Shown one piece after another: positions 37,380-42,403 of a stretch of DNA of 64,000 nt. Every line of letters begins with the position of its first letter. Positions within the stretch are counted from its first letter, which is position 1. The notes beneath the pieces are model-generated. The model had not been told where the DNA came from and made no database searches. It saw only the letters and a list, made by a program, of their open reading frames with translations. This DNA comes from Bacteroidota bacterium (GTDB taxonomy: Bacteria; Bacteroidota; Bacteroidia; Chitinophagales; Saprospiraceae): the NCBI GenBank assembly GCA_039820405.1, contig JBCBQC010000031.1:511-64510 (forward strand), in the 5' to 3' direction. A program made the position numbers and the translations under genes.

Positions 37380-39017
37380 CTAGGCGCCCCCTTGGGCGTA
37401 GCGCAGACGGGTTGCGAGAATGTGCTCGCAAGGACCCTGATATAATTTATTTTTGACGTAAAAGCGGCACTGGCAGGTGGCCGCGACGAGGCGTTGGTCG
37501 CGGTCGATGGTCAGCTCCGTGTAGTAGGTCTGATTGCCATCCCGTACCTCGCCCTTGAGCAGGATCCCCGTTTCGGTGGGGATCGCCCGTACCTTGACGG
37601 CGTTTTGCTGGAGGAGGCGCTGGGCTTGGGCTTCGCGTTCGTTGGCAAAGCGCAGGTTTTCGAAGGGCAAGGGCTCGCGACTCAATTCCCGGACGCGGTA
37701 GACGTCCTTGTTGAGGTCGTAAATCACGCGGCCCGCCTGGGCGTAGGCGCTCAGGGCTCCCTTGACGATGGCCCGGTCCAGTTGTAACTTCTGGGCCAGC
37801 TCATCGGCGGTGGCGCTCCAGGTTTCCCGGAGGGCGTTGAATACTTGGCTTTTGGTGTACAAATCCACCTGGGCACGCGGGGCGAGGAGGTCGAACTGAC
37901 CCGCTCGCGACCAATCGTTTTTCGTCCAACCCGATAGGCCCAAGGTAAAATTCAGGTGGCCCAGGTCGGCGATAAAAAAGGAGGGGAGACCCGTACCCAG
38001 CAAGCGTACTTTAAAGCGCTGAGCAATTGGAATCAGCCGTTCGAGGATCAGCAGACGTCGCCGTCCCCAAATGCGGATTTCCGTGGCCTCCGGTCCGTGA
38101 TAGATACTGCGTGGACAGGTGAGGTGGGTATTCCAGGGTTCAAAAACCAGTTGAATGGGTTCGCCGGGCCGCAGTTGGAAACGAATCGACCGGGGGCCGG
38201 TTTTTTCCAGTTTGCGGCGCAGTATAAAACACAGGTTGTAAATGTCCATTGGGTGCAAGTTCAGCTCCACACTCGGTAGCGTCATGGCGGAGCTGACCTG
38301 GAGAAAACCCCGAACCCAACTGTCGGGCAAGTCGATTTTAAGCTCTTTGAACGCTTCCTCCCGCTCGGTCTCCACCGCAAAGCCACCGGGGTCGACCACC
38401 AAGTCGGTTCGTTTGTAATTGCGAATCTTTTGAAACTCCTGATACAGGGCATCGGAGTAATCGACGTTGGTGGTACCACAGCTGAATTCCTCGATTTTAT
38501 CAAACACCTCGTAGCTGCAACCCAGGCGTCCGTAGCTCGATTCGTCCTGACTAAAGCACTCAAAAAAGACTTCGTCGGGATGTACCGTGATGACGGGGTC
38601 CAATACAAACCAGGCGTCGCGGTCTCTTTTGTAGATGTAGCTGAAATATTGTTGTCGCGCTTTGTGAAAAGGGCCCATCACCCGGTGGGACTGGCGATTG
38701 ATGTCGCGGAGTTCCGCTTGGATGCGCTCGCTCTTGGCACGGACGGTTTCGTTTTCGGCCAGCAGGTTTTGCAGGTATTCTTGCTCGTGTTCGGCCGCCC
38801 AGGCTTTGTACGCTTCGCGGTCTTTGGGACGCCAGCGCAGGTCGGATACCACCACCGCGTGAAGGGCCGAAATGGCTTCGCGGAAGGACAATTTTTTCCC
38901 CAGGGTCCCCCGAAAAAAGGTAGGACTGCGTAAGGTATCCGGTGCGAAGGACATGCTGGTCTGCGAGGTACTGCTCGCCACGCTGGAATTACCGCTGTAT
39001 TTGTACTGAAACTGCAT
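37380..39017 (-). CDS. SWIM zinc-finger domain protein
   Basis: The C-terminal SWIM motif CQCRFYVKNKLYQGPCEHILA has the CxC...CxH pattern. I placed the start at the MQFQYK ATG (39017), just downstream of the stop of the WGR gene. Confidence 0.6.
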   Translation of the reverse strand: MQFQYKYSGNSSVASSTSQTSMSFAPDTLRSPTFFRGTLGKKLSFREAISALHAVVVSDLRWRPKDREAYKAWAAEHEQEYLQNLLAENETVRAKSERIQAELRDINRQSHRVMGPFHKARQQYFSYIYKRDRDAWFVLDPVITVHPDEVFFECFSQDESSYGRLGCSYEVFDKIEEFSCGTTNVDYSDALYQEFQKIRNYKRTDLVVDPGGFAVETEREEAFKELKIDLPDSWVRGFLQVSSAMTLPSVELNLHPMDIYNLCFILRRKLEKTGPRSIRFQLRPGEPIQLVFEPWNTHLTCPRSIYHGPEATEIRIWGRRRLLILERLIPIAQRFKVRLLGTGLPSFFIADLGHLNFTLGLSGWTKNDWSRAGQFDLLAPRAQVDLYTKSQVFNALRETWSATADELAQKLQLDRAIVKGALSAYAQAGRVIYDLNKDVYRVRELSREPLPFENLRFANEREAQAQRLLQQNAVKVRAIPTETGILLKGEVRDGNQTYYTELTIDRDQRLVAATCQCRFYVKNKLYQGPCEHILATRLRYAQGGA

Positions 39018-39028
39018 ACTCCGCGTTT

Positions 39029-42000: not shown

Positions 42001-42403
42001 CGCTAGGTGAGGGTGTTTCTTTTAAGGCCTGGGGCAGGGCGGTAAATAGGGCTTGTAGCTTGCTCAGGAGGGCCGCGCGGTGGGCGGGGCTCAGGCGCTC
42101 CGCTTGGGGAGCACCGGCCGTATCGGCCGCCGCGGCTTCGCGAGCGGGATCAGTGGCCTCCTGGATGCTCGCGCGGTAGCCCTTTTTGGTTTTGGAATCC
42201 ACCAGTTTTTGGAAGATCGTCCGGGCCTCGGCTTCGCCGACGGGGAAGTCGGTCCGCGTACCGCTTTTGAGGGCGCGCCCCCGGCGGCCGTAGCGAAAGT
42301 TGACGAGAAACTGATCGGGCCCCACTTCGCACAAATCCACCTCGTAGAGTTTGTCGGATTTTTCGTCGCGGTAGTGTAATTGTATTTGTTGGACCAGTTT
42401 CAT
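39029..42403 (-). CDS. WGR-domain protein with a long helical-repeat region (DUF4132-like)
   Basis: The N-terminal WGR domain runs KLYEVDL...FLVNFRYGRRG...TIFQKLVDSKTKKGY. It is followed by 1000 aa of alpha-helical repeats. The gene is paired with a downstream SWIM gene, which is a common two-gene cassette. Confidence 0.6.
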   Translation of the reverse strand: MKLVQQIQLHYRDEKSDKLYEVDLCEVGPDQFLVNFRYGRRGRALKSGTRTDFPVGEAEARTIFQKLVDSKTKKGYRASIQEATDPAREAAAADTAGAPQAERLSPAHRAALLSKLQALFTALPQALKETPSPSVTTDPESGEGPRAVTRDNSVWNIFRRLTGGNARDKDTPSSNIPRFNSSKDPNSREKRSLSRLVWRMGELHFADGVPFLLKIASTFDPQLTYSLVWALGRCGDARALPKLLEIEANCTPDSALYHLVQEAKLALLDGPERETFLRRVHDQLPLAYRDALRTDDAEAAIRSAIEDELTNAKQAYHSIAQLYLLASGQATVHRALLRWCGEVSFRGGGYFKSLRQLYKAAEFRNDFRLLGTLAYQIEKQPAFFDHSPYRGLRLDGQWVRIAQEIKHPQSRVGFSRQTKAYLTRRTWRNLYRKGQVGDPNYVPLAVAILLSFSDADEKNTFSTTRYEYGRDANGNWYSNAIKTFFSPFASWSVFNEILYRNSPRYRRANGRHQWIYRDSHTALSPLPAEREEAFPELWDRQVAGLLHLLAESRSRVVHEFAVKAARANLAAVLPLIDADFLSLLLSKEYKVSTQFGLELARQWYRADEPSIPLLQALLRCSLAEARQQGMEWVDDQKERFFQAADFIAPLLFSPWETVSEWLDHSLTALTLPETVQTTTITRAIGRMNEADQQSDATERRCLLQAGQLLEKHFPSLLYHASFQLVQHLLSHPLAEVQNFGARILLHHQSPPESWPDGLLLGLINGSIPDLRRTGVELLNRFSDESLFGQLDLIVGLCLSPHAEVRRAVLPLVDRLIRREARVGDTLCGELAPHLLRKENAPGRDADLIELLTVRLGTYLGSIGRQRALQLLFAPRKAAHAVGQHYLQHFADGSELTLRQIVKLGDNEMRAVREWVWQYYREQRERMIAELGEAVRLMDAKWADSRDFAFDYFRREPTEEDWTPEIVVSICDSVQPAVQQFGQEMITRYFKRENGEQYLLQLSQHPSPSLQQFASNYLERFAADRPEHMEQLRHYFYAVLAGVNKSRVAKKRIFAFLQQEALKSERSARLVAEVIGRQSATFSIEDKARCIQILLDLRQHFPDLDLPLRIHDYAPYAGRTEISNP

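Follow-up and report, generated by a model that had tools for sequence, protein, structure and literature searches.

The 64,000-nucleotide stretch analysed here (the window), taken from contig JBCBQC010000031.1 of a Bacteroidota bacterium, carries on its minus strand a retron locus made of five elements. A gene for a protein with a WGR domain and HEAT repeats (39029–42403) is followed by a gene for a SWIM zinc-finger protein (37380–39017), two non-coding RNA (ncRNA) units (37115–37367 and 36876–37098) and the gene of a reverse transcriptase (RT; 35294–36838). The WGR/HEAT and SWIM genes are almost certainly the accessory pair of a type XIII retron, a type that consists of an RT of clade 10, a SWIM protein and a WGR-like/HEAT protein (Mestre et al. 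2020, NAR, PMC7736814). The assignment follows from the match of all three proteins to type-XIII-specific PADLOC profiles. With high confidence, the best overall explanation of the locus is a chromosomal type XIII retron of a Bacteroidota genome, probably one of the Saprospiraceae, for which a mechanism is proposed below.

The order of the genes and the tandem ncRNAs had been read in the same way by an earlier note on this DNA, and it is borne out by the open reading frames (ORFs), the Pfam matches and the repeats. The sizes and gaps given there were right to a base or residue: the SWIM protein has 545 residues rather than about 546, and the gap between the two accessory genes is 11 bp rather than 12.

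Proteins and ncRNA units of the locus

The product of accessory gene 1 (cluster 216_1 type), identified from its ORF and from Pfam and PADLOC matches, is a protein of 1124 residues. It contains a WGR domain (PF05406) at residues 8–79 (Pfam, E 9e-6), followed by a low-complexity linker and HEAT/ARM repeats, where Pfam matches HEAT_2. The PADLOC profile WGR_XIII aligns with residues 1–1112 over positions 1–970 of 973 (E=0, 1040 bits). The WGR domain is known from PARP and is a module of DNA metabolism. The earlier note had labelled the protein as carrying DUF4132 (PF13569) and had identified the gene pair with a widespread WGR-DUF4132 and SWIM cassette; the domain is absent, as a Pfam scan to E<=10 gives only WGR and HEAT families, and the identification, which rests on that domain, is lost with it. 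Homologues 30–67% identical to the protein also contain WGR and HEAT, and the precomputed domains of the 120 best homologues are limited to PF05406 and families of HEAT repeats, chiefly PF13646. A sequence search of the PDB matched designed HEAT repeats only, and no toxin-type domain was found by Pfam in either accessory protein.

The WGR/HEAT gene ends with a TAA stop at 39031–39029, and the SWIM gene, accessory gene 2 (cluster 114_1 type), begins at the ATG at 39017. The mechanical start of its ORF is a TTG at 39140; the start was placed at the ATG, giving 545 residues, because the match to the PADLOC profile SWIM_XIII opens there, at residue 42 of the ORF. This match covers profile positions 1–503 of 509 (2.3e-236). 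The C-terminus carries a SWIM finger of the form CxCx12CxH, read as CQC-x12-CEH: CQCRFYVKNKLYQGPCEH. No substitution is seen in 48 close homologues at the acidic residues D140, D148, E153, D186 and E225, and the same cluster is kept in 54–67 of 67 diverse ones, while the arginines at 319–321 are kept in 54–63 of these 67. A PDB sequence search finds no relative of the protein. Pfam assigns it the C-terminal SWIM finger, and a single member of the family gives a weak match to DprA_WH. Homologues with 59–70% identity occur across Bacteroidota, Myxococcota, Cyanobacteria, Acidobacteriota and other groups. Compared between phyla in the same loci, identity is 57–70% for the SWIM protein, 44–62% for the RT over the longer matches and 26–50% for the WGR/HEAT protein, with 61% over one short partial match of the latter; the pace of evolution thus differs greatly among the three.

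Between the SWIM stop codon and the RT ORF lies a non-coding stretch of 541 bp, which holds a direct repeat of 189 nt (36894–37082 and 37136–37324, 83% identical, spacing 242 nt). Each copy lies within an ncRNA unit. Unit 1 is closed by an a1/a2 stem in which 37350–37367 pairs with 37115–37132, and it encloses the stem-loop of the msr, an invariant UUGC and the long hairpin of the msd, whose middle stem is specific to the unit. Its closing stem begins about 12 nt, and its conserved core 53 nt, from the SWIM stop codon. The a1/a2 stem of unit 2 pairs 37088–37098 with 36876–36886; the scaffold of this unit is 91% identical to that of unit 1, while the middle stem of its msd is only 44% identical and is again self-complementary. 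An nhmmer match to unit 1 spans 37133–37326. Compared with shuffled sequence, both units fold with unusual stability, with folding free energies of -121 kcal/mol (z -8.0) for unit 1 and -100 kcal/mol (z -6.5) for unit 2. In the orthologue of unit 2 in a related locus (L081), both the hairpin and the a1/a2 stem carry compensatory changes.

In an alignment of 74 homologous units, the msr stem, the basal and apical msd stems and a 4-bp a1/a2 core beside the invariant UUGC are preserved. Paired positions make up 93.6% of the cells of this alignment, as against 31–47% when the partners are slid, and changes on both sides are seen in 22 of 28 pairs. The covarying structure is established by these counts, and from it both units are read as retron-type msr-msd genes, with the G of UUGC as the candidate branching residue. 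No Rfam family matches the ncRNA at the gathering threshold, and a scan of 36700–37500 to E<=10 gave only chance miRNA-like hairpins. Tandem Repeats Finder misses the units because they are just 83% identical and their spacers differ.

The RT has 514 residues, including an N-terminal extension of about 140, and matches RVT_1 of Pfam (E 4e-21). NAxxH, YxDD and VTG are hallmarks of retron RTs, and the motifs NARDH, YADD and VTG are read in its translation. The PADLOC profile RT_XIII matches residues 1–496 with 626 bits (1.2e-188), and all other RT profiles listed, of which RT_other (325 bits) and RT_outgroup (310 bits) come next, are at 2.6e-97 or weaker. Matches to the retron families of NCBIfam stay under the cut-offs. 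A DRT or a group II intron RT was considered and rejected, with Drt2 reaching just 6e-9 and the group II maturase family lying far below its cut-off. The C-terminus of the protein, within 35294–35450 of the window, consists of a basic low-complexity linker and a terminal FWKLW. In 48 relatives the RT C-terminus is complete, and of these 23 end in WK[LM][WF] and 5 in WW-x-[IL]-x variants. A terminal peptide of the WKLW type was not found described for type XIII RTs in the searchable literature.

The consensus of the -7 promoter element of Bacteroidetes is TAnnTTTG. A candidate element of this kind, TATATTTG (42434–42441, minus strand), lies 31 nt upstream of the WGR/HEAT start codon; it is a motif match only. 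It is the sole TAnnTTTG on the minus strand between 35200 and 42900, while the minus strand of the whole window has 13. Scans for sigma-70 promoters (4 found, 2.8 expected) and for intrinsic terminators (13 found, 11.6 expected) stayed at chance level, and the patterns used in these two scans are probably not valid for Bacteroidota.

Conservation of the locus across genomes

The genomes of at least 561 species encode a homologue of the SWIM protein. One genome per species was scanned with an alignment of SWIM homologues and the best 80 loci were kept with flanks of up to 10 kb, in which the neighbouring genes were sought by tblastn with the proteins of the window. In the 46 loci whose flanks reach 9 kb or more on each side, the WGR/HEAT gene lies directly upstream of the SWIM gene in 42, the ncRNA is present in 45 and the RT in 34. 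Wherever the RT was seen it is on the strand of the SWIM gene (52 of 52 loci), downstream in 48 and upstream in 4. Across the 80 loci, a median of 59 bp separates the WGR match from the SWIM match. A syntenic relative, L081, with a SWIM protein 83% identical to that of the window, keeps the amylase gene, the WGR/HEAT and SWIM genes, two ncRNA units and the RT. The same order and strand recur in dozens of genomes of several phyla, far beyond chance.

The functional link of the SWIM and WGR genes to the ncRNA and RT, which the earlier note had proposed together with a count of how often the cassette neighbours an RT, is thus upheld by the synteny across phyla. Its further statement, by which the pair would fall outside the retron effector classes described so far, is wrong: the same trio defines type XIII in the survey of 2020, and PADLOC profiles exist for all its proteins. 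The list of classes given in the note stopped at those made popular by the experimental papers of that year. That SWIM and WGR/HEAT proteins accompany this RT clade is already known, and family membership is established here for each of the three proteins.

In four cyanobacterial loci (L038–L041) the SWIM gene stands with neither a WGR/HEAT gene nor an RT nearby, and an ncRNA unit is still present in three of them.

A profile built from the two units of the window finds homologous ncRNA in 74 of the 80 loci, always on the strand of the SWIM gene and mostly within about 100 nt of its stop codon; the ncRNAs of Nannocystis are also detectably homologous. The number of units per locus varies, with none in 6 loci, one in 45, two in 24, three in 1 and four in 4. 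Loci with at least two units belong to Bacteroidota, Clostridia, Acidobacteriota, a metagenome-assembled genome of Verrucomicrobiia and some Cyanobacteria, and Nannocystis and the other myxobacterial loci examined have one. Units of the same locus share a scaffold that is on average 85% and up to 98% identical, while their middle msd stems are on average 41% identical. In L001 and L002 a scaffold identity of 98% is accompanied by middle stems of 62% and 44%. Pairing within the variable stem is preserved, also when units of the window are compared with their orthologues in L081.

As judged by these comparisons (36876–37367 of the window; L001–L010, L013, L021, L029, L032, L051, L055, L058, L074, L077 and L078), type XIII retrons often carry two to four tandem msr-msd units for one RT, in an arrangement that recurs across phyla. 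Tandem units are not mentioned by Mestre et al. 2020 (PMC7736814), and recurrent arrays of two to four units with one msd stem as the main difference were not found in the searchable literature. Synthetic arrays of retron ncRNAs already exist (PMC10370050), and the natural ones may interest builders of multiplexed retron editors.

Predicted fold of the SWIM protein and possible function

A first AlphaFold model of the SWIM protein, based on the 48 close homologues, had a mean predicted local distance difference test score (pLDDT) of 59 and left the conserved N-terminal half unmodelled. A usable model was obtained only after representatives with 30–55% identity had been added to the alignment; in the final model the pLDDT is 86.6 and the predicted template modelling score (pTM) is 0.85. 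Foldseek matches this model to PCNA (E 1.5e-8, probability 1.00). The confidently predicted clamp fold consists of two topologically repeated clamp domains, as in a monomer of the PCNA type, with a coiled-coil insertion at about residues 68–131 within the module. It is followed by a winged helix at about residues 386–442 and the SWIM zinc finger at about 474–545. A predicted helix (residues 319–331) begins with the arginines R319–321, which are only suggestive of a closed or C-shaped oligomer that would encircle or bind duplex DNA. A role of the protein in binding multicopy single-stranded DNA (msDNA) is plausible from this model, and the chances that it is an msDNA-binding, clamp-like subunit are put at about even.

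Clients of sliding clamps typically have a flexible linker that ends in a terminal aromatic peptide. The C-terminus of the RT resembles such a clamp-binding tail, and since its linker and terminal aromatic peptide match the build of a clamp client, it is a reasonable hypothesis that this tail ties the RT to the SWIM protein.

The mechanism proposed for the locus would begin with a single transcript that starts upstream of the WGR/HEAT gene and covers all five elements. In favour of such an operon are the 11-bp gap between the accessory genes, the lone TAnnTTTG ahead of the WGR/HEAT gene and the chance-level count of terminator-like sites. Priming by the RT would take place at the 2'-OH of the invariant guanine of UUGC, beside each a1/a2 stem, and each msd would be copied, so that two msDNAs differing in one stem would be made; by analogy with Mx162, their size might be roughly 120–150 nt. 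The SWIM protein, either closed into a ring or as an open clamp, would use its PCNA-like module, its winged helix and its SWIM finger to bind the duplex of the msDNA. The terminal WKLW peptide may hold the RT to the SWIM protein, and the HEAT protein may use its WGR domain to read the end of a nucleic acid or the branch. The complex of msDNA and proteins could, by analogy to other retrons, guard against phage and switch its state once the msDNA or the complex is perturbed. Taken as a whole, a type XIII retron built around a clamp of the PCNA/9-1-1 kind, in which the SWIM protein holds the msDNA by its duplex stem, the RT docks through WKLW, the WGR/HEAT protein reads an end or branch and arrays of two to four units supply several msDNAs, is a tentative proposal. 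That the system acts in phage defence, which is suggested by the same analogy, is given a little less than an even chance. A link of retrons to a sliding clamp or PCNA was not found in the searchable literature.

Mx162 was discovered in 1984, and the family of Mx162 and Mx65 includes the first retrons found. Type XIII thus contains the oldest retron family, for which the scheme, if true, would be the first concrete and testable model. The clamp-like fold, the RT tail that resembles those of clamp clients and the variable multi-ncRNA arrays are specific leads to this end, drawn from prediction and comparative data only.

Several points weigh against the clamp mechanism and the defence role. Experimental work on type XIII accessory proteins was not found in the searchable literature, where only Mestre et al. 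2020 and a survey preprint of 2026 are relevant, and for this reason all functional steps are inferred. The clamp assignment comes from a predicted structure, and in sequence the protein is only 7–14% identical to real clamps. In the published annotation (Mestre et al. 2020, PMC7736814) the acidic residues of the SWIM protein are read as a DEDE transposase-like motif, and because these residues are conserved, the cluster might still have a catalytic role. Eighteen shorter RTs, nearly all of them cyanobacterial, lack the WKLW tail and are still found in such loci. Finally, 8 of the 46 loci with full flanks (L025, L028, L060, L061, L067, L068, L070 and L075) have the WGR/HEAT gene, the SWIM gene and the ncRNA but lack an RT in the surrounding 10 kb; downstream of the ncRNA, L028 and L070 have ordinary metabolic or housekeeping genes.

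The role in defence is also weighed against by a set of observations that argue for another function. It is possible, if doubtful, that the type XIII retron is a vertically inherited, domesticated chromosomal module that serves the DNA metabolism of the host rather than an anti-phage system; a complex of msDNA with the clamp-like and WGR proteins that senses or processes DNA ends or junctions would be an example, put forward with the same reserve. Homologues of the SWIM family are found in 0 of 50,697 phage genomes, and 72,556 plasmid records give 9 matches, all in non-mobilizable replicons of more than 700 kb. Vertical inheritance and a correlation with 16S have been reported for these retrons, for which non-defence functions were suggested (Mestre et al. 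2020, PMC7736814). The neighbouring genes of the window encode mostly housekeeping or secreted proteins and are not defence genes, the conservation of the SWIM protein across phyla is, in our judgement, far above that usual for defence proteins, and both the predicted PCNA/9-1-1-like fold and the WGR domain are modules of DNA metabolism. On the other hand, every retron type tested so far is a defence system, according to the background statements of PMC12916289. The family is patchy and not universal, and an identity above 60% across phyla also fits horizontal transfer, while the variable msd stems of the tandem arrays look like diversification, which is commoner in conflict systems.

The SWIM protein might instead be a metal-dependent DEDE/DDE nuclease derived from a transposase and acting as the toxic effector of the retron, which is improbable. 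The idea was put forward when the type was defined (Mestre et al. 2020, PMC7736814), with a description of the motif Dx7[D]x4Ex30-32Dx37E and a grouping of type XIII with retrons that are associated with nucleases, and the residues of this motif, D140, D148, E153, D186 and E225, are indeed strongly conserved. SWIM fingers are present in MuDR-type transposases (Makarova et al. 2002, cited in PMC7736814). The region with the acidic residues is, however, modelled with high confidence as beta strands, in agreement with the clamp-like fold found by Foldseek, and Pfam transposase families match 0 of 67 members of the family. The RNase H-like catalytic fold expected of a DDE/DEDE nuclease is not present in the model; since the model matches clamps, the transposase-derived reading is unsupported by the fold.

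The idea that the WGR/SWIM pair is an independent cassette adjoining the retron by chance, or part of the convergent RtcB/Band-7/DUF2828 operon, for which the end of the RtcB gene 85 bp from the RT stop and the loci with no RT nearby could be cited, can practically be discounted and is already contradicted by the synteny, as the RT shares the strand of the pair wherever it was seen and is present in most full-flank loci, the ncRNA lies directly 3' of the SWIM gene in almost all loci, homologues of RtcB, Band-7, DUF2828 and WYL are found near 0 of the 80 loci, and the three proteins match profiles specific for type XIII.

Neighbouring genes and related systems

An RNA-repair-like gene set occupies 28530–35209 and is convergent with the RT. 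As identified by Pfam, it comprises a WYL-WCX-PhyH regulator (28530–30380, minus strand), a DUF2828/DUF7788 protein (30491–32065, plus strand), an SPFH/Band-7 protein (32678–33997, plus strand) and an RtcB RNA ligase (34049–35209, plus strand). A functional link of the retron to these genes was rejected in view of their absence from all 80 related loci, and their position beside the RT is a local coincidence.

Features of type IX secretion are found at 24864–28379 (minus strand), 42856–45672, 48042–49163 and 49181–55339 (all plus strand), and they indicate that the host belongs to the Bacteroidota. Por_Secre_tail sorting domains occur in two large proteins, of which one is an M43 peptidase/LamG protein and the other an alpha-amylase/CBM48 protein, and a PorP/SprF gene is also present; an ORF of 2052 residues occupies 49181–55339. 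The alpha-amylase gene is the nearest of the flanking type IX genes, about 450 bp upstream of the WGR/HEAT gene. Farther away are a fusion of HTH_3 and Peptidase_M78 of the ImmA/IrrE kind (23301–24788, plus strand), with an unannotated ORF of 546 residues (21441–23081) just upstream of it, and a tRNA gene (13220–13292, plus strand; 66.5 bits), the sole match in the window at the Rfam gathering level.

Genes for DUF4132/WGR proteins (YehI/MolR-like) and SWIM proteins (YehQ-like) occur with MoxR-vWA operons. The cassette of YehI/MolR and YehQ resembles the pair of the window in that the gene of a large WGR helical-repeat protein lies beside that of a SWIM zinc-finger protein. It differs in the domain DUF4132, which is lacking from the window protein (E<=10) and from all of its 120 best homologues, and in its association with MoxR and vWA genes, none of which was noted beside the window pair. 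The proteins of the window also match retron-specific profiles over their full length.

The sliding clamps PCNA, 9-1-1 and the bacterial beta clamp, and the herpesvirus proteins UL42/UL44, are similar to the SWIM protein in predicted fold, with an identity of 7–14% and no match of the latter to a Pfam clamp family. Unlike them, the SWIM protein has a coiled-coil insertion of about 60 residues, a fused winged helix and SWIM finger, and a strongly conserved acidic cluster, and it is encoded by a retron and not part of the replisome.

In experimentally studied defence complexes such as those of the retrons II-A Eco1/Ec86, I-A Ec78/Ec83 and I-C Eco2, the msDNA scaffolds or restrains an effector until a phage factor perturbs it (PMC12916289). 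These systems share with the window locus the tripartite unit of RT, ncRNA and one or more accessory proteins. Their effectors carry recognisable enzymatic domains (N-glycosidase/NDT, ATPase with HNH, Toprim), whereas the accessory proteins of the window have no recognised toxin domain, and the window RT matches the NCBIfam retron families of these types solely below their cut-offs.

The closest relatives are the retrons Mxa1 (Mx162), Mxa2 (Mx65), Sau1 (Sa163) and Nex2 (Ne144), which have been assigned to type XIII (Mestre et al. 2020, PMC7736814). They have the same clade 10/RT_XIII RT with an N-terminal extension, the same SWIM protein with its acidic motif, winged helix and CxCx12CxH finger, and a WGR-like protein with HEAT/ARM repeats, and a type-specific ncRNA adjoins these genes. 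The hosts of the Mx162-type retrons are myxobacteria, while the host of the window is a Saprospiraceae-like member of the Bacteroidota. The window locus has two tandem ncRNA units for one RT, in contrast to the single unit of the myxobacterial loci examined.

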